Notes: generated by a model from the sequence alone, not told the origin. A stretch of 64,000 bases of DNA from Candidatus Doudnabacteria bacterium (GCA_037200925.1 JBBCGO010000001.1:179822-243821), one strand, 5' to 3'; counted from the stretch's first letter, positions 23,193 through 52,151 are shown. A program made the numbers and translations.

Positions 23193-24748
23193 CAGCGTCT
23201 GATCACCGTTCCGGCTGTGCTTAAAATCTGTTTTGGGGTATAGCTTATCCGGCCGTTCACCACAACCATATCAATGCCTTCCGAGAACAGATCGGGATTG
23301 ACGTAATCAGCCTTGTCTGTGACCGTCTGCGGATCAAATACCACAATATCGGCAATGTTGCCTTTTGCGATCACTCCCCGATCAGCAATTCCGAGCAGGC
23401 TCGCGGGCTCGCTGGTCAATTTTTTGACCGCGCTTTCCCATTTCAGCAGTTTTTTCTCGCGGACCATTTTCAAAAACCTCGGCATGGTGCCGAAGCATCT
23501 GGGATGGAACAGCCCGGTTGATCTTTGGTTGATCCCGGCGCCGTCAGTGGCGATCATGGACAGAGGCGAGGCGCAAAACAGTTCAACCTGCTCCTGGGAC
23601 AAATTATGGTCAAAAATAGTGACCTGGGCCTTGGTTGCCGTGATAACGTTCAACAAAGCTTCTTCCGCTGAGACATTTTGATTCTGGGCGATAAGGCCAA
23701 GGGTTTTGCCCACAAAATTATTGTTGTTCCAAGCCTCAGCTACAATGATGTTCTTGAAATCCTGATCCTGGTCGCGCAGATAATCAGTAATTTTTCGCCG
23801 AGATATGGGGTCGATGGCCATTTTTAGGATCTGGTCTCTGCCACCTTCGTATGCCCATTTCGGCAAATAGGTATAAAGCACTGACCATGATGTGCTGTAC
23901 GGATAAACATCAAAGCTGATCTTCAGGCCTTTTTGATAAGCCGCCTCGAGCTTGCCTAACACGCTGTCAAACAGCGGCCAGTTCTTTTTGCCCCGGACTT
24001 TGATGTGCGAGATCTTGATCGGGATCTGATTCGCCGCGGCCAGCTCAATCACTTCATCAATGCTTTCAAGGATATGACTGGCTTCCGAGCGCAAGTGCAC
24101 GCTCAGATATTTGTTGGTTGGTTTTAAATTTCCCACGATTTCCTGAAGTTCTGCTATCGAAGAATTAACCTCGTGCGCGTAGATCAAACCCAAAGACAAG
24201 CCCAAAGCCCCGGCTGACAGCGCATCCTGCAAAGTTTTATCCATAATTTTAATTTCATCGCCGGTAAGCGATCGTACCTGATCGCCGGCGAGCCCCCGCC
24301 GCAGTGTTGCGTGCCCGACCAAGGTGCCTACATTCACGCCCAGCGGCATTGCGGACAGTATCTGCAAAAATTCAGGCATGGATGCCCAGTTCAGATTGAT
24401 GCCGGACAAATTATGCCATTTCTGAATGGTCTTGATCGATTCAGTATTCAGAAGCGGGGCCAATGATGCGCCGCAATTTCCGATGATGATCGAAGTTATC
24501 CCTTGCGACAGAAGGCTGGCCTGCTCCGGCTGGTCAAACAGGGTCCAGTAGGAATCCGAGTGGTTCTGGATATCAATGAAGCCCGGGGTCACGAATCTGT
24601 CCTGGGCATTGATCGTCTGCAGCGCTTTGCCGGATATATCCGCAGCCACCTCAACGATCTTTCCTTTTTCCACAGCCACATCCATTTTTTTCCCGGGCGC
24701 TCCTGTGCCGTCGATGACCGTGCCATTTTTGATGAGAATATCGTACAT
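23192..24748 (-). CDS. N-acyl-D-amino-acid deacylase (D-aminoacylase) family amidohydrolase
   Basis: 518 aa; IKNGTVIDGTG...DV.V..GKI..V...A...I.A..RFVTPGFIDIQNHSD metal-binding N-terminus and amidohydrolase-3 body. Translationally coupled to mraY and murD. Confidence 0.75.
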   Translation of the reverse strand: MYDILIKNGTVIDGTGAPGKKMDVAVEKGKIVEVAADISGKALQTINAQDRFVTPGFIDIQNHSDSYWTLFDQPEQASLLSQGITSIIIGNCGASLAPLLNTESIKTIQKWHNLSGINLNWASMPEFLQILSAMPLGVNVGTLVGHATLRRGLAGDQVRSLTGDEIKIMDKTLQDALSAGALGLSLGLIYAHEVNSSIAELQEIVGNLKPTNKYLSVHLRSEASHILESIDEVIELAAANQIPIKISHIKVRGKKNWPLFDSVLGKLEAAYQKGLKISFDVYPYSTSWSVLYTYLPKWAYEGGRDQILKMAIDPISRRKITDYLRDQDQDFKNIIVAEAWNNNNFVGKTLGLIAQNQNVSAEEALLNVITATKAQVTIFDHNLSQEQVELFCASPLSMIATDGAGINQRSTGLFHPRCFGTMPRFLKMVREKKLLKWESAVKKLTSEPASLLGIADRGVIAKGNIADIVVFDPQTVTDKADYVNPDLFSEGIDMVVVNGRISYTPKQILSTAGTVIRR

Positions 24749-29700: not shown

Positions 29701-30933
29701 TTACTCATACCGCAACGCTTCTATCGGACTTAATTTCGAAGCCTTGTTCGCAGGGTAAATCCCGAAGCCTAGGCCGAATAAAGCTGAGACGCCGACAGCC
29801 AGCAGGATGCCGTAAACTGGCACGGTCGGGCTCCAATTCCCGATCTTGGCAATAGCGATCGAGCCCAGGAATCCCAAAACCACGCCGATGATCCCGCCGA
29901 TAATGGTCAGGGTGACCGCTTCAAACAAAAACTGCTGCAAAATATCTTTGCGCTTGGCGCCGATGGCTTTGCGCAGGCCGATCTCCCTGGTGCGTTCCGT
30001 GACCGAAACCAGCATGATATTCATGATGCCGATCCCGCCGACGACCAAAGAAATGCCGGCAATAGCCCCTAAGAACAGGGTCAGAGCAGAAGTAATGGTG
30101 CTCAAAAGAGTCAGCGCATCCTGCTGGTTGCGGATTGTGAAGTCATCCTTGTTCGGGTCTGTGATGTGATGGTTGCTGCGCAAAACTTTCGTCACTTCAT
30201 CCTCTGCTGCGGGAAGCGAGGATGCGTCTTTGACCTGGATTTGGATCAGGCTGTAATAGTTGATGCCTAAAATAATTTTTTGCGCGGTGGATACGGGCAC
30301 GGTGACCTGGCTGTCCTGATCCACTCCTCCCGGCCCGAGACCTTTTGGTTCAGCCACTCCGATGACGCGGAAGCTTAACTGTTTGATCTTTATCAGCTGG
30401 CCAATAGGATCCTGGTTGCCGAACAGATCGTCTTTGATGGTTGCGCCCAGGATAGCCACCTGCCCGAACCCGTCCACTTCCGACTTGGTAAACCACTCAC
30501 CTTCACTCAGCGTGATTTGCCTGACAATGCCGAAATTTTCATCCTCTCCCGCCACCGCTGCCGTTTCATCCTGATTTCCAAAACCTACATCAAACTGGCC
30601 ACGGACTTCGGGACTGACGTATTGCAGGTGGGGAGCCAGGTCTTTGTTTTGCAGAGCTTTCACATCCTCAGACGTAAGACTGGTGACTGTTGCCCCGGAA
30701 GCCTGCGCCGGAGCTGAAAATTGGCTTTTGCCGCTGCCTCCGGGAATGACAAACAACAAATTCGAGCCAATGCCTTCAACCTGATTGATGATCAGGGATT
30801 TGGCGCCGTTGCCGGCTGAGATCAGAATTATCACTGCTGTAATACCGATAATTATGCCGAGCATTGTCAAAAACGTCCTGGTCTTGTTCAGAAGCAGTGC
30901 CTTGAACGACATCTTTATGGTTTGCAGCATCAT
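29701..30933 (-). CDS. ABC transporter permease, MacB/FtsX family
   Basis: 410 aa; N-terminal TM, large MacB-type periplasmic domain, C-terminal FtsX 3-TM bundle. Confidence 0.85.
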   Translation of the reverse strand: MMLQTIKMSFKALLLNKTRTFLTMLGIIIGITAVIILISAGNGAKSLIINQVEGIGSNLLFVIPGGSGKSQFSAPAQASGATVTSLTSEDVKALQNKDLAPHLQYVSPEVRGQFDVGFGNQDETAAVAGEDENFGIVRQITLSEGEWFTKSEVDGFGQVAILGATIKDDLFGNQDPIGQLIKIKQLSFRVIGVAEPKGLGPGGVDQDSQVTVPVSTAQKIILGINYYSLIQIQVKDASSLPAAEDEVTKVLRSNHHITDPNKDDFTIRNQQDALTLLSTITSALTLFLGAIAGISLVVGGIGIMNIMLVSVTERTREIGLRKAIGAKRKDILQQFLFEAVTLTIIGGIIGVVLGFLGSIAIAKIGNWSPTVPVYGILLAVGVSALFGLGFGIYPANKASKLSPIEALRYE

Positions 30934-31619
30934 GACCGTTTTTTATCCTCAACTATTGCGCCGTCTTTGAGCCTGATCACGCGTTTGGCATAATCCGCAA
31001 TATCTTCCTCGTGGGTCACGAAGATCAAACTATGGCCCTCTTTGTTCAATTTGTTGAATAACATCATTATCTCCAAAGATGATTTGGAATCCAAATTTCC
31101 CGTCGGTTCATCCGCGAAGATCACCTTAGGATTATTGATGAGCGCGCGGGCGATGGCCACTCGCTGCTGCTGCCCGCCTGACAGTTCCGAAGGATGATGA
31201 CCGACCCGTTCCGACAGACCCACGGCAGCCAGCATTTTCAAGCCTGCCTCTTTCATCTCAGCGTCAGACCGTTTGTTCTCATAAAGCATGGGTAAGATGA
31301 CATTGTCCAGAGAACTTGTGCGCGGCAGCAGGTTGAACGCCTGGAACACAAATCCGATCTCCTGATTCCTGATGTCAGCCAGATCGTTATCCGAAAGAGA
31401 AGTAACATCTTTATTTTCAAAAATATACTTACCCGAACTGGGCCGGTCCAAAAAACCCATGACATGCATGAGCGTGGATTTTCCCGAGCCGGACGGACCC
31501 ATGATCGCAACGAATTCCCCCTGCTCAATGGTCAGGTTGATGTGGTTTATAGCGGCAACTTCATTATCCGAGCCGGGATAATAAACTTTCTGCAGATTTT
31601 CCAGTTTTATCAGGGACAT
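30930..31619 (-). CDS. ABC transporter ATP-binding protein (MacB/LolD-type)
   Basis: GPSGSGKST Walker [16 protein letters not shown] signature, [11 protein letters not shown] Walker B. Confidence 0.9.
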
Positions 31620-31620
31620 T

Positions 31621-33117
31621 TTATTTGCTCACGACAACTACAGTATCGCCCTCGGACAAGCCGGAAATCACTTCCGAATAATTATCCCCGACCAGTCCGG
31701 TCTGGATCTCAATATCCTGCGGTTTGGAATTTTTCAGGACTGTCACGATCTTTTTATCGCCGTTGGTGTTTATCAGCCGGTTCGGAATAGCCAAAGTGTC
31801 GCTCTTTTCCGCAATTAGAATGCTTAAATTCACAGTCATGCCCGGTTTGATGCTCGGATCAACAGGCAATGATGAGATGACCCGGAACTCTATCACGCCT
31901 GAATCCACGATGGAGGCGGGATCAATAGATATAACTTGCCCGGTTAAATGCTTATCAGGTCCAAATGCGTCCAGGGTCATATCAATGCTCTGATCGGGCT
32001 GGACCAGATCTATAGACGATTCGGGAATATCTGATTCCACATGCAAAGAATTCTCATCCAGCAGAACGATAGCTTCTTTCAAAGCCGTGACCTGTTCTCC
32101 AAGTTTGATATCAACTGAGGTGATTTGCCCTGATATCGGCGCGCTGATGATATTATTCGAATAAGTATTGCGTGCGATCTGAAGAGAAGCTTGGGCTTGA
32201 GCCAGGCTTGCTTGCGCTGCATTCACATCCTCGGGACGGGCCTGAGCTTTTTTCTGATCAAGCGCAGCCTGGGCGGTTTTAACCGCCGAATCTGCAGAAG
32301 ACACAGCCGAACTTTGCGTCTGAAGTGCAGACTGGTAAGCGTTGGAGTTCGCTGTGTAATTTGCCGCTTGAGTGTTGGGAATTTGCACAGTCCATATTGT
32401 TGAACTGGATATGGTGCCGGAGGCGCCAAAAGTTATGAACAGCCCCTTGCCGATAGGCTGCGGGACTCCGCGGGAAATAAGCCCGCTGTCGGCGCCAAGC
32501 CCCGAAACATTGTAATATTGCCCGCTGGGTACATCAGATACGGCAATTGTAAAACTTCCTTCCTGGGGGCCTTCGTAACTGCCGCTTATTGCGGCTTGCA
32601 CCGTTGAAGTGGAATCGGATGGAGTTGCGGCAGGTGTGGAATTAAGCAAAGCTGAAAAAGCATTTGCAACTGATGTTGCCTGCTGCTGAACTGTATTGGT
32701 ATAAGAAGCCTTGGCATTATCAAGCGCCACTTGAGCCACGTTGATATCGGGGCTGGATGCTCCACTTATTACTTTGTCCAAATTTGCCTGAGCCGACAAA
32801 ACTTGGGCATTGGCCTGGGCAATTGAAGCGGATGCGTCTTTTTCGTCGAGCATGGCCAATGTCTGTCCGGATCTGACCTTATCTCCGACCTTAACATTGA
32901 TTTGGGTTAAAATACCCGTGCCTTTGAACCCTAGACTTAAATTTGACTGCGAAGTAACCGTACCGGTTGAAATTACGGTTTCTTTTACGTCCTGTTTTGC
33001 AACCGTGTAAGACTCTTTATAAACTACGGGCTTCGGACGGAATATCAAATACCCAATGAATACTGCGGCGAGTATGACAATGGTCCAGATGATGTATTTT
33101 TTGGTAAAAAATCTCAT
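31621..33117 (-). CDS. Efflux periplasmic adaptor (HlyD/MacA-like membrane fusion protein) with extended low-complexity linker
   Basis: 498 aa; N-terminal TM, biotinyl-lipoyl-like hairpins (GQTLAMLD...), long S/A/Q-rich middle, C-terminal beta-barrel. Confidence 0.75.
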   Translation of the reverse strand: MRFFTKKYIIWTIVILAAVFIGYLIFRPKPVVYKESYTVAKQDVKETVISTGTVTSQSNLSLGFKGTGILTQINVKVGDKVRSGQTLAMLDEKDASASIAQANAQVLSAQANLDKVISGASSPDINVAQVALDNAKASYTNTVQQQATSVANAFSALLNSTPAATPSDSTSTVQAAISGSYEGPQEGSFTIAVSDVPSGQYYNVSGLGADSGLISRGVPQPIGKGLFITFGASGTISSSTIWTVQIPNTQAANYTANSNAYQSALQTQSSAVSSADSAVKTAQAALDQKKAQARPEDVNAAQASLAQAQASLQIARNTYSNNIISAPISGQITSVDIKLGEQVTALKEAIVLLDENSLHVESDIPESSIDLVQPDQSIDMTLDAFGPDKHLTGQVISIDPASIVDSGVIEFRVISSLPVDPSIKPGMTVNLSILIAEKSDTLAIPNRLINTNGDKKIVTVLKNSKPQDIEIQTGLVGDNYSEVISGLSEGDTVVVVSK

Positions 33118-33533
33118 AAATTAAATTTATTATATAGCTTTTCTATGATCCTGATAAGAGTTGCCCTTTCAACCGAGGTCAGATCAGCCAAAGCTGCACG
33201 GATCTTTTTCTTAAAAAATTGAGACCCGTTCTTTAATAATATCTGTCCTTTTTTTGTCAATTTCAGCTGCACGATCCTGCGGTCATTGCGCACCGCTGAT
33301 CGGGCTATCAACCCTGATTTTACCATACCCTCGATCAATGAGGTAGCGGAAGGAGGGGTAACCCCGAACAGGTCCGCTATGTCTTTCATCACAGTCGGAT
33401 GATTGTTCGAGATAAAATGCAGGACGCGCAAATGCAGAGGCGAATATGAAAAGCGGTGCTTGGGAACGTCATGTCCCAGCTTCTTTGCTTCAAACATCAG
33501 GTTGATTATCTGGTCGGTCTGGCTATCCGGCAT
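33114..33533 (-). CDS. MarR-family transcriptional regulator
   Basis: 139 aa winged HTH (LRVLHFISNNHPTVMKDIADLFGVTPPSATSLIEGMVKSGLI). Confidence 0.8.
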   Translation of the reverse strand: MPDSQTDQIINLMFEAKKLGHDVPKHRFSYSPLHLRVLHFISNNHPTVMKDIADLFGVTPPSATSLIEGMVKSGLIARSAVRNDRRIVQLKLTKKGQILLKNGSQFFKKKIRAALADLTSVERATLIRIIEKLYNKFNL

Positions 33534-33793: not shown

Positions 33794-35278
33794 TTATTCT
33801 ATTTCGCCGCCCAGGATCTTCAGCGCTGATTCAACTGTTTCATTCGGCTGCCCTTCGCTTGCAGCTTTAGGCCAGTCTTTGGCTATTACAGGCCTGACCA
33901 TAAGTTTTACGCCTGTCACTTCTTCAATTACCTGGTCTACGATTATCCGGTTCTTCCGTGCTTCAATCGCATCCTTGTGGAATTTGTAGGGAAAAACCAG
34001 GATCAGTTCCTTGCCTTCAATAGCCGTGGGCACGGCAAGGTTCAAGCTTGAGATGAGGGAATGGTTGTAATCCTTGATCTTATCTAAAATTTGCGGCCAG
34101 CTTGCAATGACTTTTGATAATAACTCCCCCGCATTATCTGGAGCGTTTTCATCCCCTCTTACATTAAGAGGAGTTGGCGCGATAGCGCCAGTGGAGTTAC
34201 TCTCCCAGGTCGCTTCAACCGCAGCCAGTTCCAAAGGCAGGCTTTGCACCACAGTCCATTTGATCTCTCCTTCCGCTTTCTGGAAGATATGGATGATCTT
34301 CGTTAAACGCGGTAAGGCAAGCGCTTCAGCTTGGCGCTTCAAAATTTCCTGCACGTCCTTTGTGAACCCAAAGTCAGAAATAGTGCCCACTTTTATCAGC
34401 AGGATTTTCCGCAGATATTCCAAAAAATCTTTTTCAAACTGGAAAAGATCGCGGCCGGCATACATCAGATCACTGATAAATCCGACGGCTTCCTGGGTTT
34501 TATTCTCAATGATCAGGTTCAGAAATTTGCTGGTCGTTCGAACTCCGGTCAGACCCAAAACCTGCTCAACCAGCTCTTCAGTAACCTCTCCTTCCGCATA
34601 ATTGATGACCTGGTCCAGAAGCGACAAACCGTCCCGGAAACTGCCGTCTGCGGCGGTTGCGATCTCCATCAGAGCGCCTTCAGAAATGACGATTTTATTA
34701 TCTTCTCCCACATATTTTAGGAGCCTGGTCAGATCCGCCACGCTGACCTTTTTAAAGTCAAACCGCTGCGTACGGGAAATTATGGTAGCCGGTACTTTGT
34801 TGATCTCAGTTGTGGCCAAAATAAACACGGCATGTTTGGGAGGCTCTTCCAAAGTCTTGAGCAAGGCGTTAAATGCGCCTTTGGACAGCATATGGACTTC
34901 GTCTATAATGATAACTTTGTAAGTGGCTTTGGTCGGCGCAAACTGCAAATGTTCTATCAGTTCGCGGATATTGTCCACGCCGGTATGGGACGCAGCATCG
35001 ATCTCCAGCAAATCCAGGCTGGTGGCTTCAAAAAACGATTTGCACACATCGCATTGGTTGCAAGGTTCGCTTCCTTGGCGGTTCGTGCAATTGATGGCCC
35101 GCGCAAAAATCCGGGCCAATGTAGTTTTGCCCACGCCCCTAGGACCCGTGAACAGATAGGCGTGTCCCACGCGGTTGTTAGCCACGGCATTGGCAAGGGT
35201 GGATTTGATGTGCTCTTGATTTACGACAGAAGCGAAATTGAGCGGGCGATATTTACGATATAAAACTAAATTAGACAT
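33794..35278 (-). CDS. dnaX: DNA polymerase III gamma/tau subunit
   Basis: GPRGVGKTT Walker A, zinc module CNQCDVC, SRT sensor. Confidence 0.9.
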   Translation of the reverse strand: MSNLVLYRKYRPLNFASVVNQEHIKSTLANAVANNRVGHAYLFTGPRGVGKTTLARIFARAINCTNRQGSEPCNQCDVCKSFFEATSLDLLEIDAASHTGVDNIRELIEHLQFAPTKATYKVIIIDEVHMLSKGAFNALLKTLEEPPKHAVFILATTEINKVPATIISRTQRFDFKKVSVADLTRLLKYVGEDNKIVISEGALMEIATAADGSFRDGLSLLDQVINYAEGEVTEELVEQVLGLTGVRTTSKFLNLIIENKTQEAVGFISDLMYAGRDLFQFEKDFLEYLRKILLIKVGTISDFGFTKDVQEILKRQAEALALPRLTKIIHIFQKAEGEIKWTVVQSLPLELAAVEATWESNSTGAIAPTPLNVRGDENAPDNAGELLSKVIASWPQILDKIKDYNHSLISSLNLAVPTAIEGKELILVFPYKFHKDAIEARKNRIIVDQVIEEVTGVKLMVRPVIAKDWPKAASEGQPNETVESALKILGGEIE

Positions 35279-35346: not shown

Positions 35347-35781
35347 CTATTTTTTGAAAACAAAAAGCTTATAGCCGATGAAATTCCAGATGAGGCTGAT
35401 GCCGGTCGCGGCTAGTGCCGCAACGTTCAGCCAAAGATGCTGCGACAGACCGAACATGGGAGAAATATGGGTTGTGATCAGGTAAACCGTGCCGGAGTTG
35501 ATTCCGGCGCCAATGATGCTGACTATCAAAAACAGGCTGAACTTGCGCCCGGTATCGGTATGGGTTTGATCTTTAAAAGACCAGCGCTTGTTCCAGATAT
35601 AGCTGTTGGTCGTGGCCACGGCAAAAGCCACAACAGCCAAGGGAATGATCTTGCCGCCGCTTGTTATGCCGGTTATCGCCGACAAAATATTTAAAATAAT
35701 AAAATTGATCGCGGTATTGATGACTCCGACCACGACAAACTTCAAAAATTGATTGATCGTTGATTTGTATTTCTCGTACAT
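35347..35781 (-). CDS. GtrA-family membrane protein (polysaccharide synthesis-associated)
   Basis: 144 aa, 4 TM; FLKFVVVGVINTAINFIILN start and C-terminal YKLFVFKK typical of GtrA-like proteins. Confidence 0.7.
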   Translation of the reverse strand: MYEKYKSTINQFLKFVVVGVINTAINFIILNILSAITGITSGGKIIPLAVVAFAVATTNSYIWNKRWSFKDQTHTDTGRKFSLFLIVSIIGAGINSGTVYLITTHISPMFGLSQHLWLNVAALAATGISLIWNFIGYKLFVFKK

Positions 35782-35801: not shown

Positions 35802-36404
35802 TCAGATCTCGTCAAGCTCTGTTTCATCAGAAGCATCTGCCCGTGTCAGCGGTGCCAAAGACTGCCCAGCCTGGTCTTTTTTGATGACATTCTCAACCGC
35901 GCCCCAGTTCGCATCCCGGTCCTTGGGCAATACTATTGTCACCTGGTCTCCGGGCTCCGCCTTAAAGTAAGTCAGACTGGCCAGGAGGACTTTGAAAGGT
36001 TTGCCTTCAGCCACGACCTTATATTCGCCTTTTTCATCCTGGACCAAAACGCCCAAAATTTTGCGCCGTTCGATGGGCCCGATCTGTTTGTAGATGAACG
36101 AGCCGTCATCCGCAATGGTCAGTTTCAGCACATCGCCTTCCACCAGTTTACTTTTTGACGCATAATTTGCCGGCACCGGATACTGCTTGCCGTCAGGCCC
36201 GATCATATTTTGGCCGTCAAACATGCCCTCTACGACCTTGCCGCCGTCGGAAACATTCAGAACTTGCGCTCTTTTCATGATATCGGAAGAAACTTCAGCC
36301 TTGCCTCCCATCATTTCACGCAATAAAGCGCGGGCCGACTGAATATTCTTTTCAGCTGACTCGATCATCTGGGCAACAAGTGCAAGATTAGAAAGATTGT
36401 CCAT
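35802..36404 (-). CDS. Hypothetical protein (200 aa)
   Basis: Clean ORF with helical N-terminus and a beta-rich body; no family recognised. Confidence 0.45.
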   Translation of the reverse strand: MDNLSNLALVAQMIESAEKNIQSARALLREMMGGKAEVSSDIMKRAQVLNVSDGGKVVEGMFDGQNMIGPDGKQYPVPANYASKSKLVEGDVLKLTIADDGSFIYKQIGPIERRKILGVLVQDEKGEYKVVAEGKPFKVLLASLTYFKAEPGDQVTIVLPKDRDANWGAVENVIKKDQAGQSLAPLTRADASDETELDEI

Positions 36405-36559
36405 ATTCGTTTTAATTTCTGAGGCTGGGTATAAGATTACCTGGCAATTTTAACGATTTATCCACAGCCTGTCAAGGTTGATTTTCCCGAAAGTTTATAC
36501 GATTTAAAGTTGTTTTTGGTTTCCTAAACGCTCTAAAAACAAATATATTATAGCAGACT

Positions 36560-36757
36560 CTATTTATCGTCTGCAAGCAGGGTTTTTACCCAGGCGATAA
36601 AGACCTGTAATGCCTGCTGGAAATTATTGTCGTGCGGATTTTCCAGCATTTCAATGCCCTGATCGTAGTGCTCGTCTTTTACTTCAGGGACCTCAAGCTT
36701 TTTTTCTACAGGCTGTTCGCGCTCCAGTTCGGTTTCCAATTTTTCCGGAGTGTTCAT
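36560..36757 (-). CDS. Hypothetical acidic small protein (65 aa)
   Basis: 4-nt ATGA overlap with the upstream 138-aa ORF suggests translational coupling. Confidence 0.35.
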   Translation of the reverse strand: MNTPEKLETELEREQPVEKKLEVPEVKDEHYDQGIEMLENPHDNNFQQALQVFIAWVKTLLADDK

Positions 36758-37170
36758 ATTTTATCTTTTTCCAAAAATTGATTGAATTTGGGAAAATCTT
36801 TACGCAGATCCTCGGCTTTTATCTCTTCGCGGATAGCTTCCTGGAGGATTTCCAGGGCCATCTTCGTATCCTGCGGCAGAATATCAGCTACAAATTCCCG
36901 GACCTTCTCTTCCAGCTGTTTGCGCTGGGAGATTTGAATGCCGAATTGGATCCGCTCTTCCAGCTGGAACAGTTCGTCAAAATCGGAAGACAGATCCTTG
37001 ATCAGCCGCAAAAAATCCTGTTCTGTGTCGATCAGATTGATGTTATCAACGACTTTCTGGGCAATTTCGGCAGCCCGGCTAAGGCTGATCTTCCGGATGC
37101 GCAGTTCCTCTGCCAAAAAATAGCACACTGATTTGGCATATTCATTTTTCTTTTCGGCAGCTGTGGTCAT
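36754..37170 (-). CDS. Hypothetical helical protein (138 aa)
   Basis: Lies 11 nt downstream of the coupling-protein-like ATPase gene on the same strand. Confidence 0.45.
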   Translation of the reverse strand: MTTAAEKKNEYAKSVCYFLAEELRIRKISLSRAAEIAQKVVDNINLIDTEQDFLRLIKDLSSDFDELFQLEERIQFGIQISQRKQLEEKVREFVADILPQDTKMALEILQEAIREEIKAEDLRKDFPKFNQFLEKDKI

Positions 37171-37181
37171 TAAATAAATAC

Positions 37182-39722
37182 TTACGCTGTTTTTTCAACC
37201 ACGGCAGGACCCGCGGCCAGCGGCGAACCGAGTTTGGTCCGTTCCAGGATCTCAGCTTCAATTTCGCTCCGGGCGCGGCCAAACTTCAAGCGCGACAAAT
37301 TCCGGATAACCGCCGCAACCGTCAGATCAGCGCCCGGCGGTTTTGGATAAGTTTCCATATTGAACGGACGGGACGCGGTCCCATGGATCATAAGCTTGAC
37401 GTAAGCGTTGTACCGGTCGATATTTATCACATCAAATTCGTTAAAAACAGGCGCAAATTCCTTGGCCATGATCTCCGCGTCCTCAACGCCGATCCGAAAA
37501 CAGATCATGGTGCCGGTGTTGCCGAAGACGGCATTCTTCATTGAGGAATCAAGCGCAGATGAGCCTTCCTTTTCCACGGCCAGCTGGGAAATGAACTGAT
37601 GGGCCATGATCAAATTCAGCCGGTATTTTCGGGCTTCGGACAGGATCGTGGCAAAACTGTCGGTCACAAAATTTTGGAACTCATCTACATACAGATAGAA
37701 ATCCCGCCGCTGATCCTCGGGAATGTCGGCGCGCGCCAAAGCAGCCATCTGGATCTTGGAGACGATTATCAATCCCAAAAGCTTGGCATTGATCTCGCCG
37801 GTCTTGCCTTTGGACAAATTTATCAGCAGGATCTTGCCTTCATCCATGACCTTCCTCAGATCGAACGCGCTTTGCGTCTGGCCGATGATATTGCGCATCA
37901 TTTCGTTTTCCACGAACCGGCCGACTTTCGAGATCAGATAACCCAGCATTTCCGATTTGTGAAAATCGGATGTCTTAGCCATTTCTTTTTCCCAAAAGCT
38001 GCGCACGATAGGGTCTTTGACCTTGGACACTTTGTATTTCTGAAAATCCGTATCCGTGAACATGCGCGGGATGTCCGCCAGCGTGCCCGGATACTGTTTG
38101 TCTTCCATCAGGGTCAGCATGACATTGCGCATGTTATGCTCGAACATGGGACCGATCATTTCCGGCGGGAAAAGTTTCATAAAGATCGCGATCATTTCCT
38201 GCACCGCAAAATCTTTTTGCTCGGGACCTGCAACTTGCAGCATGTTCAGGCCCAGAGGGCGCTCCATATCGAACGGTTCGAACAAGATCACGTCTTCCGC
38301 CCGCTCCTTGGGGATGTACTGCAGAACATCCTCGACCAGATCGCCGTGCGGGTCAACGACGCAGACTCCCTCGCCGGCGCGGATATCCTGGATGACCATA
38401 TTTTTCAGCATCTCTGTCTTCCCTGTACCGGTGCGGCCGATTATGTACTGGTGCCGCCTGCGGTCGTCGCGCTCCAGATAAATCTTGGTTTCAATGCCGC
38501 GGTAAAAATTCCGCCCCAAAAGCACGCCTGTCGTCGGCGTATTCACCGGCGCGGGAGCTTTTTTTGCGGACAGCCATTTAATGTTCGGGGTATCCAGGAA
38601 TCTGGTCGGCAAATGCCAGAGGCTGGCCAGCTCCTCGGTATTGAGGATCATCTTCGTGTTGCGGAAAACGCGGAAAATATAATCGGTCATCACAACCGAT
38701 TGTTTTTTATTCAGGACTTTAAATCCGTTGAACGGCGGCATGGTGTATTGCATGAATGACGCCAGAATATTGCGCAGGTTTGCGTCTGCGGTCATTTGAT
38801 CAGCGGAAGATGCGACCACCCGCAGATTGAACTTAAAACCCGATTTGGACGCTTTCTCTTCAAATTTCTTGATGATCTCCTGCTGCATCGGCGTCAGCTG
38901 CAGCGGCTTGTTCATGCCGGACTGGTCCATGTAGCCCGCGTGTTCCTGCTGCTTGTTCTTGGAAGAAAACAGCTGATCGAACGCGCTTCCCAAAAGGCGG
39001 AAGAAGCCATTGAAGATCTTTGAAGCGGTTGAGGAGGTGACAATATCGGGATGGCGGCCTTGCTGGATCTGAAGCGCGTATCCGCGGGGTTTTGACTGCC
39101 AGTGCTCGGAAGCCGGGCTGATCAAAAGCTGGATGGCCGCGCCTTCCTCCGCTGATAATTTCGACAAGCTGTTCGTCAGCGAGCTCAGCGGATCGGTTTC
39201 CATGGATTTGTACGTGCGCAGGGGGAACGAATAGTTTTTCTGCAAACTCAGTTCACTGGCTGCGACAAATGATTTCGGAGAAAAAATATTATACGGCCTG
39301 ATGACGTCGATCTGGGCATCGGGATATTGCCCCTGCAGCTGCTTCTCCACGAGGTTCTGGAGTCTTTTCGGGACATTGATGTAAAACGAGATCTTTCTTT
39401 CGTGGGCAGCGATCTCAAAACTTATATATTCATTTATCCCCAAAAAATGCTTTAGGTCGCCGCCTTCGGTTGTGCCGATGGTGGCGAAGAACTGCTCCGC
39501 AATGCCAATGATGTCTTTTTCCTCTTTTTGCGCCTGCTGTTCCGGGTCGGAATTTTCCTTGGGGATCATAACTTCCAAAAATACGGAATCGAGCATCCGC
39601 GGGGCCCAGGTTTTTTTGCGCAGAGTATCCATAGCCAAAAAATACAAAAGCAGGCCGACGAGGCCCAGGATGGCTATAAGTATCAGCCAGAATAAAATTA
39701 GCGAACCGTTGAACAAACTCAT
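37182..39722 (-). CDS. Membrane-anchored VirD4/TraG/TraD-type (type IV coupling protein-like) P-loop ATPase
   Basis: 846 aa; N-terminal TM helix, ~400-aa unknown domain, Walker A IIGRTGTGKT, VVDPHGD Walker B region, YLYVDEFQNF...LIMAHQFISQL C-terminal motif of T4CP/TraG-family ATPases. Confidence 0.6.
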   Translation of the reverse strand: MSLFNGSLILFWLILIAILGLVGLLLYFLAMDTLRKKTWAPRMLDSVFLEVMIPKENSDPEQQAQKEEKDIIGIAEQFFATIGTTEGGDLKHFLGINEYISFEIAAHERKISFYINVPKRLQNLVEKQLQGQYPDAQIDVIRPYNIFSPKSFVAASELSLQKNYSFPLRTYKSMETDPLSSLTNSLSKLSAEEGAAIQLLISPASEHWQSKPRGYALQIQQGRHPDIVTSSTASKIFNGFFRLLGSAFDQLFSSKNKQQEHAGYMDQSGMNKPLQLTPMQQEIIKKFEEKASKSGFKFNLRVVASSADQMTADANLRNILASFMQYTMPPFNGFKVLNKKQSVVMTDYIFRVFRNTKMILNTEELASLWHLPTRFLDTPNIKWLSAKKAPAPVNTPTTGVLLGRNFYRGIETKIYLERDDRRRHQYIIGRTGTGKTEMLKNMVIQDIRAGEGVCVVDPHGDLVEDVLQYIPKERAEDVILFEPFDMERPLGLNMLQVAGPEQKDFAVQEMIAIFMKLFPPEMIGPMFEHNMRNVMLTLMEDKQYPGTLADIPRMFTDTDFQKYKVSKVKDPIVRSFWEKEMAKTSDFHKSEMLGYLISKVGRFVENEMMRNIIGQTQSAFDLRKVMDEGKILLINLSKGKTGEINAKLLGLIIVSKIQMAALARADIPEDQRRDFYLYVDEFQNFVTDSFATILSEARKYRLNLIMAHQFISQLAVEKEGSSALDSSMKNAVFGNTGTMICFRIGVEDAEIMAKEFAPVFNEFDVINIDRYNAYVKLMIHGTASRPFNMETYPKPPGADLTVAAVIRNLSRLKFGRARSEIEAEILERTKLGSPLAAGPAVVEKTA

Positions 39723-39756
39723 TTTTATTTTTGATTTCCTAAAATAACTTTTCGGG

Positions 39757-40113
39757 TTATCCCAAAATCTCTCTTAAGGCCTCAGTCTGATCATTCCCGC
39801 TGGCTCCGGAGTTCATCATATCTTCGATCGCTTTCCTCTTCTGAGCTTCGGTTTTATATTCGATTTTCAGAGGCATACCTGCTTCGTTATGAACTTCTTC
39901 CGCGGATTGCTCTTTACTCGCATCAGGCGAAATGATTTTTTGAACCTTATCGGCGTTTTGTTCCCGTTCGGCTTCGGTCGGCCACGAGCGAGTGGTCTTG
40001 TCGCGTTGGCTATCCAAAAATTCCCCTGCCTCCTGATTGGGTTTCAAGGATTTTGTTTCCATATTTTCCGGGATATGCCCGGTTTCAATTGGTTTTTCAG
40101 GTATTTCTGCCAT
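39757..40113 (-). CDS. Hypothetical acidic, probably disordered, protein (118 aa)
   Basis: Immediately upstream (34 nt) of the coupling-protein-like gene on the same strand. Confidence 0.35.
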   Translation of the reverse strand: MAEIPEKPIETGHIPENMETKSLKPNQEAGEFLDSQRDKTTRSWPTEAEREQNADKVQKIISPDASKEQSAEEVHNEAGMPLKIEYKTEAQKRKAIEDMMNSGASGNDQTEALREILG

Positions 40114-45827: not shown

Positions 45828-48155
45828 TTATTTCACTGCATGCCCTCCGAATTGTTCCCGCATGCTGGACACTAGCTTGCCTACAAAACTCTGGGTCTTT
45901 TTTGACTTTACGCGGAACCGGAATGATTGTTCAATGATCTGCGCCGGTATCTTTAATTCTTTGGCTGTTTTGGCGGTCCATTCGCCTTCTCCCGTGTAAC
46001 CGACCACGCCTGTAATTCCTCTTAAATTCTGGCCGCGCATCAGGAAAGCGTCCTTCAGCCAGCCGACCAAACGGGACTCCACCACACTGCCGTGATTATA
46101 CAGGGCCGCGACATCAACCAAGTTTAATTTGAAGGGTGATTTTTTAAGGATGCCAAACCCTTCGGCCAAGGACTGCATCATGCCGTACTCAATGCCGTTG
46201 TGGACCATTTTGACAAAGTGCCCGGACCCGTACCCGGGAAAAAACTTATATCCGCCAAAAACTGAAATGCCTCTGAATAAAGATTCTAATTTCAAATACG
46301 TTTTGCGGTTCCCGCCTATCATGAGGCAGGCTCCCCGGCGCGCCCCGCCGGGGCCGCCGGAAACTCCGATGCCCAAAAATTCTATCCCCCGTTTTTGCAG
46401 AAATTTGCCGCGGCGGATGGAATCTTTATAAAAAGAATTGCCGCCGTCAATGATTATATCCCCGCGCCGCAAGTGCTTGGACAGGCCGTTTTTCCCGAAC
46501 AAGACCTCATCCACACTGGCATGCGGCACCATGAGCCAGACCACCCGCTGTTCCGGCAGGCCTGCCAATAACTGTCCGTAACTTTCCGTTACCGTGAATT
46601 GGGGATTCTGAGAAAGTTCTTTTACCGCTTCCGGCGAATGGTGATTCGTGCTTGTGAGCTGATATCCTTTTTCCATCATCTGCAGGACCAGATTCTTCCC
46701 CATTTTTCCGAGGCCGATCATGGCCAGTTTTTTTGGCCCAGCTGCGACGGCCGGAACACCATCGATACCGAATTTCTCTAAAATTTTATTGTTCTTGCCG
46801 TAAAAATTGAGCGGTGTAAGTTTTTTCTGCCAAGCATTGACGATCGGGTCAATGAACTTCCAGGCGGAAAGAGCCTCGCGGCTGGAAACAAACAAAGTTT
46901 GGTCTCCCACTATCGCGTCCGAGATCAGGCGCGCATATTCCGCCAAATAGCGCTGGGACGGATCGGCTTCGTACGCAAAGTCCAAAGTTTTTTTCTCTAA
47001 TTGCATGCCGGTCCCCGGTTTTTTTGACCAAAACTCGATCACGATCCCGGCGACAGGCTGGATCTTAAAACAGATCCTGTTTTTTAGACCCTGTCCTTTG
47101 AAAGTCACAATGATCTGCTTGTCATTTTCCGGAAAATTCTTGCCTGATTCAATATAGATCGGCACGCCTTTGAAACGATTCCCTTCCAATTCAGTTTTGA
47201 GCTTAAAATATGTCTCGGTGTTGGAGCTGCGTGCCACCCCCGCTTCTTTCCTGTATCCGCGGTACTGGGCGCGGAGAGTATTGGTTCTTATTTCATCCGC
47301 GCTGAGGATATGCAGATTTTCCATGACTTCCGCACGCTTCAAACGGATCCCCGAGCCTGACATCGCACCAGGATCATCCATTGTGACCAAAGCCAGCATC
47401 TGCAATAAATGATTTTGGCCCACATCCAGAAGCGCTCCGACGCCGTCGTAAAATTCGCCGCGGCCCTGCACATCGATCTGTTCAAGCAATTTGATCTCAA
47501 TTTTTTCAATGAACTTATTGTTCCAGATATCCTCCAGGAGGTGGTTGGAAAACCGGAAGGCCATGACATTCTGCAAAACCTCTTTCGCCAGGTAATGATC
47601 AATGCGATAAACTTGATCTTCAGAAAAAAGCTTGGCCAGAAGTTTATCCAATTTTTGCGCATGCGTCAGGTCTTTGCCGAACGGCTTTTCCACCAAGACG
47701 CGGGTCCAGCCCAGCTTGCCTTTATCGGTCAGGCCTGACGCGGACAGCTGGTGGAACAAGTTGTCATTAAAATGCGGCGGGATAGCCAGGTAAAATAATT
47801 TATTGCTGTGGATCTTCAGTTTCCGGTCGAGTCTGCCTAAGCGCACGCTCAGCCTTTGATACGCCTCCGGATCTTCCAGCTGGCCCTGATGGTAGGTGAA
47901 CAACTGCAAAAACTTATTAAGCTTTCTGTCCAAGCCGGAAGGGTAATGCTTTTTAAGCGAACTTCGCAGATGTGCCCGGAAATCCTCATCCGACCAATCG
48001 CGCCTGGAAAAACCCACCACAGAAAATCCCGGCGGCAGATTTTTTTGCTTGAACAAATAATAGATGGCGGGGGTCAGTTTTCTCTCCATCAGATCCCCGG
48101 TTGCGCCGAATACAACAAGTACTGTCGCCTGCTTATTTTTCTTTAAATTTGGCAT
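45828..48155 (-). CDS. Fused glucose-6-phosphate dehydrogenase (Zwf) - 6-phosphogluconate dehydrogenase (short Gnd-type) bifunctional protein
   Basis: N-terminal ~500 aa: VVFGATGDLMERKL and RIDHYLAKE motifs of G6PD. C-terminal ~310 aa: MIGLGKMGKNL Rossmann start and GGNSFYKDS...YGSGHFVKMVHNGIEYGMMQ of 6PGDH. One uninterrupted 818-aa ORF; start chosen at MPNLKK (48155). Confidence 0.75.
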   Translation of the reverse strand: MPNLKKNKQATVLVVFGATGDLMERKLTPAIYYLFKQKNLPPGFSVVGFSRRDWSDEDFRAHLRSSLKKHYPSGLDRKLNKFLQLFTYHQGQLEDPEAYQRLSVRLGRLDRKLKIHSNKLFYLAIPPHFNDNLFHQLSASGLTDKGKLGWTRVLVEKPFGKDLTHAQKLDKLLAKLFSEDQVYRIDHYLAKEVLQNVMAFRFSNHLLEDIWNNKFIEKIEIKLLEQIDVQGRGEFYDGVGALLDVGQNHLLQMLALVTMDDPGAMSGSGIRLKRAEVMENLHILSADEIRTNTLRAQYRGYRKEAGVARSSNTETYFKLKTELEGNRFKGVPIYIESGKNFPENDKQIIVTFKGQGLKNRICFKIQPVAGIVIEFWSKKPGTGMQLEKKTLDFAYEADPSQRYLAEYARLISDAIVGDQTLFVSSREALSAWKFIDPIVNAWQKKLTPLNFYGKNNKILEKFGIDGVPAVAAGPKKLAMIGLGKMGKNLVLQMMEKGYQLTSTNHHSPEAVKELSQNPQFTVTESYGQLLAGLPEQRVVWLMVPHASVDEVLFGKNGLSKHLRRGDIIIDGGNSFYKDSIRRGKFLQKRGIEFLGIGVSGGPGGARRGACLMIGGNRKTYLKLESLFRGISVFGGYKFFPGYGSGHFVKMVHNGIEYGMMQSLAEGFGILKKSPFKLNLVDVAALYNHGSVVESRLVGWLKDAFLMRGQNLRGITGVVGYTGEGEWTAKTAKELKIPAQIIEQSFRFRVKSKKTQSFVGKLVSSMREQFGGHAVK

Positions 48156-48259
48156 ATGAGGACATATTAGCATATTTTGGCAGGAAAAATGAAACAATTT
48201 AACGCCTGCATTCGTTATATATTTACAAACCCAGAAAGCTGCTGTATACTCAAAAAAGC

Positions 48260-48844
48260 ATGAATATCCTAAAAGAACCAACACAAAATCCGACTGACGA
48301 ACATTTGGTGGAAAATTACCTGAACGGCGACTCGCATGCCCTGGATCTCCTGATCCAGAAATATCTGAGCCAGACGTATAATTTTGTTTTCAAATATGTC
48401 CATACGACGCAGGACGCCGAAGACGTGACCCAGGAGGCCTTTGTTAAGGCCTGGAAAAAAATAGATACTTTCAAACGCCAGTATAAATTTAAAACCTGGC
48501 TGTTTACGATCGCCAAAAACACGGCGCTCGACCATCTGAAAAAACGGGGCCTTGTTCCGTTCTCCGCTCTCAATGGTGAAAATGAAGGAGAGGCTTTTGA
48601 GCAAAGTTTGGTGTCTTACGAAACACTGCCGGACGAAGCTTTGGCCAAGATCCAGGATGCGAAAATAATAGGCCACGCAGTCGATAAATTGCCGGATATT
48701 TACCGCCAGGTCATCACACTTTATTACGACGATCAGCTGAACTTTCGGGAGATCGCCGGCCTGCTGAAACAATCCATCAATACAATAAAAACCCGCCATC
48801 GCCGGGCTCTGGCCTATTTGAGGCGCGATTTGCCCAAAAATTGA
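48260..48844 (+). CDS. ECF-subfamily RNA polymerase sigma-70 factor
   Basis: Region 2 (DVTQEAFVKAWKKIDTF...WLFTIAKNTALD) and region 4 HTH (NFREIAGLLKQSINTIKTR). Confidence 0.85.
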   Translation: MNILKEPTQNPTDEHLVENYLNGDSHALDLLIQKYLSQTYNFVFKYVHTTQDAEDVTQEAFVKAWKKIDTFKRQYKFKTWLFTIAKNTALDHLKKRGLVPFSALNGENEGEAFEQSLVSYETLPDEALAKIQDAKIIGHAVDKLPDIYRQVITLYYDDQLNFREIAGLLKQSINTIKTRHRRALAYLRRDLPKN

Positions 48845-49725: not shown

Positions 49726-51435
49726 ATGACATTTATTCAAAAATTCCTAACTTATATAAAAGCTCATAAAGTCATCACGGTCATTGTCCTGGTCGTGGCG
49801 GCTTTTGGCGGATACCAGTGGTATAAAAAAGCGCATGCTTCCGCAGGTTCGGTCCAGTACATTACCAAAGCCGCGGCGAAAACGACGATCTCCGTATCCG
49901 TCTCCGGCACAGGCCAGGTTTCGGCTCAAAACAGGATCGACCTTAAACCCGGCGGGTCCGGCCAGGTCGCAGCCGAGCTCGTCACGGTCAATGTCAAGCA
50001 AGGCGACCAGGTCAAGGCCGGCCAGGTTATCGCCACTGTGGATCAAAAAAATAATTCAGTCGCTCTGATCCAGGCCAAAGCATCATTGCAAAGCGCGCAG
50101 GCGAATTACGATAAATTGATATCAGGGCTGACTTCTACGGATATGCAAACTGCCCAGCTCGCGGTAACTACGGCACAGCAGGCCTTAGACAAGGCGAACA
50201 GAGATTATGCGAATACCGTCACCACCCAGCAGCAAAACGTGGATAAAGCCTATAGCGCCCTGCTGAATTCCGATCTGCAGCCGGATCCGTCTGATGCCAA
50301 CACCACTGCGGCAGTGACGATCACCGGGAATTATACGGCGAAAGACCCGAGCCAAATAACCGTGAGCTTATCTGAAGTTCCCGCCGGGATGCGTTATCAA
50401 AGCACCGGACTTTCTGGCGACGGTGATCTGATAACGCGGGGCGTTGCCCAGCCGATAGGAGACGGGCTGTTCATTACGTTTGATGCAAGCGGCACCCTGA
50501 ATGCTTCCACGGTTTGGACAATTGATATTCCGAACACAAAATCGTCCGGTTACCTGAACAATAATTTTGCTTATAACTCCGCGCTTCAAAATCAAACTCA
50601 AGCCCTGGCATCCGCCCAGGATACGATCAATTCGGCGCAAAATTCCCTGACCCAGGCCCAGCTGTCCCTGCAATCAAAAACAGCTCCCCCGACCTCGGCT
50701 GATGTAGCGTCGGCCAAAGCCCAGATCGCGCAAGCTCAAGCACAGCTGCAGAACGCGGATGTAAATTACAGCAACAACATCATTAAATCCCCGTTCGACG
50801 GCCAAGTCGCACAATTAAATAACCAGCCGGGCGACCAGGTCACCTCAAGTACGATCATTGCCACGGTCATCACCAACCAAAAACTGGCTGTCATGCCACT
50901 GAACGAAGTCGATGCCGCTAAAGTCTCGGTGGGACAGAAAGTTAACCTGACCTTTGACGCGCTCGACAGTCTGAATGTTGTCGGCACCGTCGCGCAGGTG
51001 GATACTCTCGGCACGGTAAGCCAGGGGGTTGTTACTTATAACGTAAAAATCGGCTTTGATTCTCAGGATGCCCGGATCAAACCCGGCATGAGCGTCACCG
51101 CCGCTATTATTACGGATGTCAAAACTGACATCGTGGCAGTGCCCAGTTCCGCCGTAAAATCAGATTCCAACGGCGATTACGTCCAAGTCCTGAACTCCAA
51201 AGGCGAACCGGAAAATAAAACCGTACAAGTCGGGATCTCCAATGATACTGACACGGAGATCACAAGCGGTTTGAACGAAGGCGACATGGTCGTCACACAA
51301 ACCATCAACTCCGCGGCCAAAACCACAACCGCGACAACCAGGGCCGGCGGCGGGATCATCCCGGGTCTGGGAGGCGGGGGCGGCGCGGTCAGAGGCGCCT
51401 TTACAGGCGGGGGCGGCGGCGGAGGCGGCCGATGA
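49726..51435 (+). CDS. Efflux periplasmic adaptor (HlyD/MacA-like) with long low-complexity linker and Gly-rich tail
   Basis: 569 aa; paralog of 31621..33117; ends [20 protein letters not shown]. Confidence 0.75.
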   Translation: MTFIQKFLTYIKAHKVITVIVLVVAAFGGYQWYKKAHASAGSVQYITKAAAKTTISVSVSGTGQVSAQNRIDLKPGGSGQVAAELVTVNVKQGDQVKAGQVIATVDQKNNSVALIQAKASLQSAQANYDKLISGLTSTDMQTAQLAVTTAQQALDKANRDYANTVTTQQQNVDKAYSALLNSDLQPDPSDANTTAAVTITGNYTAKDPSQITVSLSEVPAGMRYQSTGLSGDGDLITRGVAQPIGDGLFITFDASGTLNASTVWTIDIPNTKSSGYLNNNFAYNSALQNQTQALASAQDTINSAQNSLTQAQLSLQSKTAPPTSADVASAKAQIAQAQAQLQNADVNYSNNIIKSPFDGQVAQLNNQPGDQVTSSTIIATVITNQKLAVMPLNEVDAAKVSVGQKVNLTFDALDSLNVVGTVAQVDTLGTVSQGVVTYNVKIGFDSQDARIKPGMSVTAAIITDVKTDIVAVPSSAVKSDSNGDYVQVLNSKGEPENKTVQVGISNDTDTEITSGLNEGDMVVTQTINSAAKTTTATTRAGGGIIPGLGGGGGAVRGAFTGGGGGGGGR

Positions 51436-52151
51436 TCGAATGCCATCATATCAATAAATCCTATTTCAACGGCGATGTCGAGACTAAAGTTTTAAAAGAC
51501 GTAACCTTCACGATCAAAGACGGCGAATTCGTGGCGATCATGGGCCCGTCGGGATCCGGCAAATCCACTCTGATGCACATCATTGGAGCGCTGGATACGC
51601 CCACGCACGGAAAATATATCCTGGACGGCAAGGACGTCTCGACTCTGTCTGACGACGAACTGGCCGCCATCCGCCGGCAAAAAATAGGTTTTGTATTCCA
51701 GTCGTTCAACCTGCTTCCCCGCGCCACCGTGCTCCGCAATGTGGCTCTGCCTTTGGTTTACGCCGAGATCGATAAAACGAACCGCGATGAACTGGCCAAA
51801 AAAGCCTCTTTACAGGCGGGTCTGGATGAATCGCGGTTTTATCATTTATCAAACCAGCTCTCCGGCGGACAGATGCAAAGGGTGGCCATTGCAAGGGCTC
51901 TTGTAAATAACCCTTCGCTTCTTCTGGCCGATGAACCGACGGGCAATTTGGATACCAAGACCGGCGACATCGTGCTTCACACATTTCAAAAGTTGAACGA
52001 GCAAGGCCATACGATCGTACTGATTACTCACGAACCTTACGTGGCCGAACACGCATCACGCATCATTCATATCCGTGACGGCGAGATTTTGAAAGACGAA
52101 ACTAATCTGAACCGCAGAATAGTAGATACCAACAAGATCCATGAAGACTAG
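51432..52151 (+). CDS. ABC transporter ATP-binding protein (MacB/LolD-type)
   Basis: [35 protein letters not shown]. Confidence 0.9.

Follow-up and report, generated by a model that had tools for sequence, protein, structure and literature searches.

A coupling-protein-type ATPase with a predicted VirB4-like N-terminal domain in Candidatus Doudnabacteria

Type IV coupling proteins (T4CPs) such as TrwB and VirD4 are hexameric membrane ATPases, which receive substrates and feed them into the channel of a type IV secretion system (T4SS). T4CPs usually have two transmembrane (TM) helices. VirB4, the ATPase for T4SS assembly, contacts the membrane platform through its N-terminal domain. Here, we describe a protein of 846 amino acids (aa) encoded on a 64,000-nucleotide stretch of DNA from a Candidatus Doudnabacteria bacterium (GCA_037200925.1, JBBCGO010000001.1:179822-243821; the whole stretch is hereafter called the window). 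Its identity as a membrane-anchored motor of the T4CP family that carries a module resembling the VirB4 N-domain is well supported. Four small open reading frames (ORFs) are packed around the gene on the same strand, and an earlier note on this DNA had proposed the five ORFs as a compact and undescribed translocation module. We suggest instead that the 846-aa gene is probably the patescibacterial version of a monoderm-type T4CP, which would dock via its VirB4-like N-domain to a T4SS encoded elsewhere, with the acidic protein encoded upstream as an adaptor or regulator.

Orphan T4CPs are already known from the candidate phyla radiation (CPR) and are not new. In the survey of Quinonero-Coronel et al. 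2025 (PMC12102498), 2,918 of 3,035 Patescibacteria genomes encode VirD4-type T4CP homologues, 5,713 in total, and no more than 148 of these are near virB4. The same source derives the patescibacterial T4SS from the monoderm MPF-FATA class, and a Doudnabacteria-class genome in its dataset has VirB4. The homologues counted there resemble the gene described here in being VirD4-type, chromosomal, almost always far from virB4 and present at about two per genome, and they may include the DUF8128-T4CP family introduced below. The abstract and the T4CP and VirB4 passages of the survey make no mention of the N-terminal domain, of a VirB4-like fold or of a partner gene upstream.

Domain architecture of the 846-aa protein

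The C-terminal half of the protein passes the cut-offs of three Pfam families of T4CPs. These are TrwB_AAD_bind (PF10412; 45.2 bits, cut-off 20.5; residues 414-715), T4SS-DNA_transf (PF02534; 37.4 bits, cut-off 20.1) and TraG-D_C (PF12696; 22.7 bits, cut-off 22). Among proteins of solved structure, TrwB (8.8e-7) and DotL (5e-4) are closest in sequence, with the region from Walker B to the QSxSQL motif aligned to TrwB. The motifs GRTGTGKT (residues 429-436), VVDPHGD (455-461) and AHQFISQL (707-714), as well as the TM anchor, are located as the earlier note had described them, and LYVDEFQNF is found at residues 677-685. In the structural model, residues 500-627 form an insert made up only of helices between the two Walker motifs, at a moderate local pLDDT of 53-83. 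The protein shares Walker A, Walker B, QSxSQL-like motifs, an all-helical insert and an N-terminal anchor with the VirD4/TrwB/TraG type of T4CPs, including TrwB of R388, DotL and Cag-beta.

Better scores for FtsK or HerA had been named as an outcome that would speak against a coupling-protein identity. The scores found were lower: FtsK_SpoIIIE (PF01580) reaches 13.3 bits against a cut-off of 24, HerA_C 19.2 bits against 22, and the NCBIfam model helicase_HerA 14.9 against 970. DUF87 exceeds its cut-off (24.0 bits against 23.2) over residues 411-489 around Walker A only. Based on the lower scores compared to the T4CP families and on the gene context, we rejected an FtsK identity and regard a HerA identity as unlikely. 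The profile matches support an ATPase of the T4CP (VirD4/TraG/TrwB) type rather than of the FtsK or HerA type.

The same domain matches two defence families in PADLOC, mad8 with 8.6e-17 (residues 421-754) and DndH with 3.3e-6, which raises the question whether the protein is a defence ATPase resembling Mad8 of the MADS system or DndH. However, the matches are limited to the shared P-loop/T4CP-like core, no other defence gene is nearby, the context is housekeeping, and the family is abundant across CPR lineages. The Mad8 score presumably reflects the shared T4CP-like fold, and we regard a defence function as extremely unlikely.

The N-terminal part of the protein sets it apart from the known VirD4/TrwB/TraG proteins. 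A single TM helix is directly followed by the basic stretch RKK..R, and there is no second hydrophobic segment. Judged from this pattern, the DUF8128 and ATPase domains likely both lie in the cytoplasm. The 360-residue DUF8128 would thereby be placed between anchor and motor, an arrangement that differs from VirD4/TrwB/TraG as does the single TM helix.

The N-terminal domain of about 400 residues, left unassigned in the earlier note, belongs to PF26449 (DUF8128). A precomputed PF26449 match is listed for an identical protein and for all listed homologues; our own Pfam scan of the window protein gave no PF26449 match, and the model was probably absent from that copy of the database. The identical protein is annotated by NCBI on a 964-kb Candidatus Doudnabacteria contig as a 'type IV secretion system DNA-binding domain-containing protein'. 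The ATPase has more than 5,000 database homologues, and all those listed carry PF26449 followed by T4CP domains. Among 1.8 billion cluster representatives, 2,201 relatives were retrieved with residues 1-400 as the query. DUF8128 is N-terminal in all of them, the full-length proteins among them measure about 800-1,400 aa, and T4CP domains stand behind DUF8128 in 9 of the 9 distant representatives examined. The predicted DUF8128-T4CP architecture does not vary among the roughly 2,200 cluster representatives. No papers on DUF8128 were retrieved in a literature search.

Residues 41-400 were modelled alone with 69 diverse homologues, yielding a pLDDT of 88.6 and a pTM of 0.85. In a Foldseek search with this model, the top 14 matches were all TrwK/VirB4 chains, and nothing else fell below E 0.01. 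No P-loop ATPase was among 60 fold matches listed for the N-domain, hence the N-domain likely matches the non-ATPase part of VirB4, aligned ranges not being reported. The model thus assigns DUF8128 the predicted fold of the VirB4 N-terminal domain. The full-length model retrieved TrwK/VirB4 (E 6.6e-12) ahead of DotL (4.9e-8), TrwB (about 1e-7) and HerA (6e-6), and aligned to VirB4 chains across 790-960 columns, i.e. over both halves.

Relatives in conjugation clusters

Relatives of the protein are found on conjugative plasmids. A tblastn search against plasmids detected the ATPase domain in 697 records and the N-domain in 36, mostly haloarchaeal with a few Bacillota. Three haloarchaeal plasmids (NZ_CP071310.1, NZ_CP135526.1 and NZ_CP085339.1; loci L166, L168 and L169) encode a VirB4-like gene, then a DUF8128 gene, then a T4CP gene. 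The VirB4-like ATPase matches the CD1110 family with 7e-53 (family-tested on L168). Neighbouring genes overlap at their ends on two plasmids, and 83 bp separate the DUF8128 and T4CP genes on the third. The separate DUF8128-like proteins of 352-391 aa are annotated only as hypothetical, and the T4CP-like ATPase is acidic in its N-terminal tail and has a long extension at the C-terminus. Profile-profile comparison by hhalign aligned the CPR N-domain to the separate haloarchaeal DUF8128 proteins (E 6.8e-32, 269 columns) and the CPR ATPase domain to the haloarchaeal plasmid T4CPs (E 4.6e-33, 409 columns).

An actinobacterial plasmid, from Embleya (NZ_CP108778.1), encodes an 812-aa protein with fused TM, DUF8128 and T4CP regions. 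Its DUF8128 was recovered by hmmsearch (2e-15) and by hhalign (97% probability over 288 columns), and its T4CP domain shares 31.6% identity (E 3e-57). Directly before it comes the gene for a 643-aa 'ATP-binding protein' (not family-tested), a relaxase-like 'replication-relaxation' gene is located downstream, and the cluster also carries genes for PrgI and for NlpC/P60, a cell-wall hydrolase. By its predicted gene content, the Embleya locus is a monoderm conjugation cluster. On a Pontibacillus megaplasmid, a DUF8128 gene is located about 8 kb from a cluster with VirB4 (CD1110), VirB6/TrbL and pilin-like genes. Orthologues are hence found within conjugation clusters, which identifies the family as a likely coupling protein of monoderm and archaeal conjugation systems. 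A monoderm-type assignment fits the MPF-FATA origin of the patescibacterial T4SS given in the survey (PMC12102498).

The window protein has homologous N- and ATPase domains to both the Embleya and haloarchaeal proteins, and Embleya shares the same fused order. The contexts differ, as the plasmid genes lie inside T4SS clusters with the protein split into two genes in haloarchaea, whereas the window gene is chromosomal and isolated, with an acidic upstream partner instead. Similarly, the window gene lacks the adjacent relaxase or T4SS genes that the Embleya and haloarchaeal orthologues have.

The structural similarity to VirB4/TrwK suggests that the 846-aa protein might be the VirB4 of the genome itself, mis-scored as a T4CP. 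The protein resembles VirB4 in its two-domain architecture and in the modelled fold of its N-domain, and the best fold matches of the full-length model are chains of VirB4. VirB3-VirB4 fusions exist, and the TM helix ahead of the N-domain recalls them. Sequence evidence contradicts such an identity, with no match to Pfam CagE_TrbE_VirB or AAA_10 (E up to 1) nor to the NCBIfam VirB4 model (TIGR00929), and an ATPase domain that is T4CP-like by profile. By hhalign, the adjacent haloarchaeal VirB4s align with the ATPase domain across no more than 39 columns, all around Walker A (E 7e-4), compared to 409 columns for the T4CPs. A separate true VirB4 adjoins the DUF8128 and T4CP genes on the haloarchaeal plasmids. 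Furthermore, the window differs from VirB4 loci in having no VirB3-like membrane protein upstream, as the 118-aa protein encoded there is without a hydrophobic segment. A mis-scored VirB4 thus seems highly improbable.

Small ORFs and gene-order conservation

The five minus-strand ORFs, including the 4-bp overlap of the 138-aa and 65-aa ORFs, were confirmed (Table 1). Could they constitute a self-contained membrane translocation system? The spacing on one strand is tight (gaps of 34 and 11 bp, then the overlap), and the four small proteins match no recognisable family, as the earlier note had observed. However, none of the four contains a TM segment by hydropathy, therefore none can be a channel component.

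Table 1. Features of the 846-aa ATPase gene and its surroundings, and haloarchaeal gene trios. Positions are those of the window, and for the trios those of the named loci.
Feature	Position	Strand	Remarks
dnaX	33794..35278	same strand as ATPase gene	
gtrA	35347..35781	same strand as ATPase gene	
200-aa ORF	35802..36404	-	strongly conserved CPR protein; 155-bp gap before it
65-aa ORF	36560..36757	-	acidic; 4-bp overlap with 138-aa ORF
138-aa ORF	36754..37170	-	acidic, without TM; 11 bp downstream of ATPase gene
846-aa membrane-anchored T4CP-family ATPase	37182..39722	-	TM + DUF8128 + nucleotide-binding domain with all-alpha insert
T4CP-type ATPase domain	37185..38522	-	residues 401-846
AHQFISQL	37581..37604	-	
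Walker B	37668..37694	-	
All-helical insert	about 37842..38225	-	
VVDPHGD	38340..38360	-	
Walker A	38415..38438	-	
DUF8128 domain	38523..39602	-	residues 41-400; predicted VirB4 N-terminal-domain-like fold
TM helix	39633..39701	-	residues 8-30; mean Kyte-Doolittle hydropathy over 19 residues, maximum 3.12
118-aa ORF	39757..40113	-	acidic, pI 4.8, soluble; ends 34 bp upstream of 846-aa gene
Haloarchaeal gene trio, L166	8666..15595		
Haloarchaeal gene trio, L168	5495..13054		
Haloarchaeal gene trio, L169	5582..12734		

Conservation of the neighbourhood was assessed in a close set of 81 loci (ATPase identity 57-100%) and a distant set of 84 loci (35-48%). The conservation anticipated for the small ORFs holds for the upstream acidic gene by position, and fails for the others. 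In most of the 81 close loci, the ATPase gene is preceded on the same strand, usually at a distance of 20-50 bp, by an ORF encoding about 100-150 aa. The majority of the encoded proteins are acidic, with a median pI of 4.7, and their sequences are of low complexity. The 118-aa ORF of the window itself has no sequence homologue at E<=1e-4 in the 81 close loci, and an iterative profile search retrieved only the ORF itself. In a held-out test, a profile built from the C-terminal 55 residues of half the upstream ORFs was run against 8,507 ORFs. Held-out upstream ORFs made up 8 of the 12 best non-training matches, and the 118-aa ORF of the window scored E 0.49. The distant set contains an upstream ORF in 65 of 75 loci at a median gap of 9 bp, with at least two further families in 21 and 15 loci. 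Among the small ORFs, only the acidic upstream gene is thus conserved in position from lineage to lineage, and it is fast-evolving in sequence.

The genes downstream of the ATPase vary widely among relatives. The 138-aa ORF is present in 36 of 81 loci of the close set, compared to 1 of 84 in the distant set, and it has no family in Pfam, NCBIfam or PADLOC. For the 65-aa ORF, matches were obtained in 11 of 81 close loci and none in a relaxed search of four distant loci, and it has no family in Pfam or NCBIfam. Both appear to be lineage-specific accessories of subsets of Doudnabacteria, with the 65-aa ORF confined to close relatives.

The 200-aa protein has a broader distribution, being encoded downstream in 59 of 81 close and 15 of 84 distant loci. 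All 8,000 of 8,000 scored candidates are homologues, and none of 120 listed has a Pfam domain; the protein itself has no Pfam, NCBIfam or PADLOC family. It consists of an N-terminal helix and a conserved core EGVFDG..NYASKSKLVEGD.LKL, with an invariant core NYASKS..GD.LK. Compared to the PDB, the family profile matches best to DotY (E 0.55, 13 bits), which belongs to the type IV coupling complex of Legionella. We rejected DotY as not significant, and the match is a curious coincidence.

The 200-aa gene is usually followed by gtrA and dnaX, and both are absent from every long Doudnabacteria-level locus without the 200-aa gene. In some distant loci, dnaX or gtrA follows directly after the ATPase gene. 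The 200-aa gene is a member of an old cysS...ATPase...dnaX gene order, doubtful and not demonstrably part of a module with the ATPase. GtrA and DnaX are likewise old syntenic neighbours and not demonstrated parts of a machine. Synteny of dnaX with the ATPase gene extends to 51 of 81 close and 17 of 84 distant loci and is sometimes one of direct adjacency. In distant loci (e.g. L088, L096, L109, L119, L131 and L133), the 200-aa gene, gtrA or both often lie between the ATPase gene and dnaX, and cysS and corA are frequently found upstream. XerC-like recombinase genes adjoin the ATPase gene in 7 loci. A tandem second DUF8128-ATPase paralogue is located directly downstream of the first in L127 and in four other metagenome loci. 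Such tandem paralogues are consistent with roughly two T4CP homologues per genome in the survey (PMC12102498).

The operon read from same-strand packing does not hold up, because the co-directional run extends past the five ORFs into gtrA, dnaX and tRNA-Gln and packing alone is therefore no operon evidence. A promoter-like site (TTGACA-17-TAAAAT, 36475..36447) is located in the gap that separates the 200-aa ORF from the 65-aa ORF, and a hairpin resembling a terminator stands after gtrA, both being consensus matches only. The two elements suggest two putative transcription units. Taken with the patchy 65-aa and 138-aa ORFs, a 200-aa gene that is lost with gtrA-dnaX and has its own promoter-like site, and a family of thousands of homologues, the proposed compact and undescribed module is very unlikely.

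The remainder of the window is housekeeping, based on Pfam matches of the larger ORFs, with genes for ATP synthase, mraY-murD-ftsW-murJ, LepA, CysS, DnaB, RecR, DnaX and two MacAB-like pumps. The earlier note had seen no other T4SS genes. This stands for VirB4, VirB6 and relaxase, which along with integrase were not detected in Pfam scans of the larger ORFs of the window; for pilins it is not strictly excluded, as the small ORFs outside the five were not all scanned. Further observations concern unrelated genes of the window. The two MacAB-like efflux sets (29701..33533 on the minus strand and 49726..53379 on the plus strand) each comprise an HlyD-type adaptor, an ABC ATPase and a MacB/FtsX permease, and a MarR regulator gene is directly upstream of the first set. 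Two further genes lie within the mraY-murD-ftsW-murJ cluster on the minus strand, one for an amidohydrolase of 518 aa (23192..24748) and one for a DUF4012 protein of 696 aa (18766..20856). An 818-aa ORF (45828..48284, minus strand) fuses glucose-6-phosphate dehydrogenase (G6PD_N/C) to 6-phosphogluconate dehydrogenase domains, with a gene call of 775 aa on the matching contig. A 542-aa ORF (56588..58216, minus strand) has no Pfam family at E<=1e-4.

Possible attachment and roles of the motor

The 846-aa protein would form a membrane-anchored hexameric, NTP-driven motor and substrate receptor. A VirB4-like N-domain on a T4CP, or beside it in haloarchaea, plausibly docks onto the inner-membrane complex of a T4SS. 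The N-domain could seat the motor on a membrane platform made of VirB3/VirB6/VirB8-like parts or on a VirB4 hexamer, and the platform might be the patescibacterial T4SS encoded elsewhere in the genome. The small acidic upstream protein may be a fast-evolving adaptor or regulator, which would bind the motor via its own C-terminal helices. By analogy, it could act like the small proteins known to bind T4CPs.

Several observations weigh against a T4CP docked to a remote T4SS. No other T4SS gene was detected in the 64-kb window, therefore we infer the coupling to a T4SS. No T4CP equivalog model of NCBIfam reaches its cut-off, with SXT_TraD as the best at 63.9 bits against 366 and conju_CD1115 at 47.6 against 250. 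The full-length model is mediocre (pLDDT 66), and hhalign retrieved nothing between DUF8128 and three VirB4 sequences, so that the VirB4 likeness is structural only. By hhalign, the two further families of upstream ORFs (upA and upB) and the Doudnabacteria type show no homology to one another, hence the notion of one conserved partner rests on position and composition. In the survey, T4CP homologues occur in 96% of Patescibacteria genomes compared to 80% for VirB4, and in S. epibionticum a t4cp gene, which may or may not encode DUF8128, is dispensable while the T4SS is essential (PMC12102498).

The last two points favour the main alternative, in which the protein is an exapted membrane DNA translocase independent of a T4SS. 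Alone or with the acidic partner, the translocase would serve a core chromosomal task, such as uptake of DNA or nucleotide polymers, or a function linked to replication or segregation. The authors of the survey hold exaptation possible, and the rarity of homologues near virB4 in their dataset points in the same direction (PMC12102498). The purely housekeeping context of the window, the persistence of dnaX synteny across close and distant loci, and the XerC-like recombinase neighbours would also be consistent with exaptation. Weak NCBIfam matches to the archaeal DNA-import ATPases CedB and CedD add to this, but the scores (22.5 and 21 bits, respectively) are far below the cut-offs. Orthologues of the same architecture in bona fide conjugation clusters argue against exaptation, and the dnaX gene order may be inherited rather than functional. 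FtsK is reportedly present in at least one CPR bacterium, TM7x, and a segregation role may already be covered. Overall, we consider exaptation rather unlikely, though with an appreciable chance of being correct.

A bolder proposal adds an evolutionary component. Coupling proteins could have arisen from a VirB4-like two-domain ancestor, with the DUF8128-T4CPs as a surviving VirB4-to-VirD4 intermediate. In Patescibacteria, they might then constitute an autonomous, widely conserved two-gene module independent of T4SS, for example for the uptake of host nucleic acids or for a chromosomal process linked to dnaX. We view this combined scenario as speculative and improbable.

The reading as a monoderm-type T4CP removes a false lead, as the locus would represent a variant T4CP subfamily rather than a new secretion system made up of five genes. 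Patescibacteria are dependent on host cells, and in the one species tested the T4SS is essential. The T4CP homologues present in most of their genomes have so far been counted rather than dissected in the survey (PMC12102498). The analyses here add a predicted VirB4-like docking domain in the uncharacterised half of the protein, its occurrence in fused and split form in conjugation clusters of actinobacteria and haloarchaea, and an upstream partner gene that keeps its position. Together, they provide testable hypotheses for how the motor may be attached and how substrates may be recognised, and they bear on the relationship between VirB4 and VirD4.

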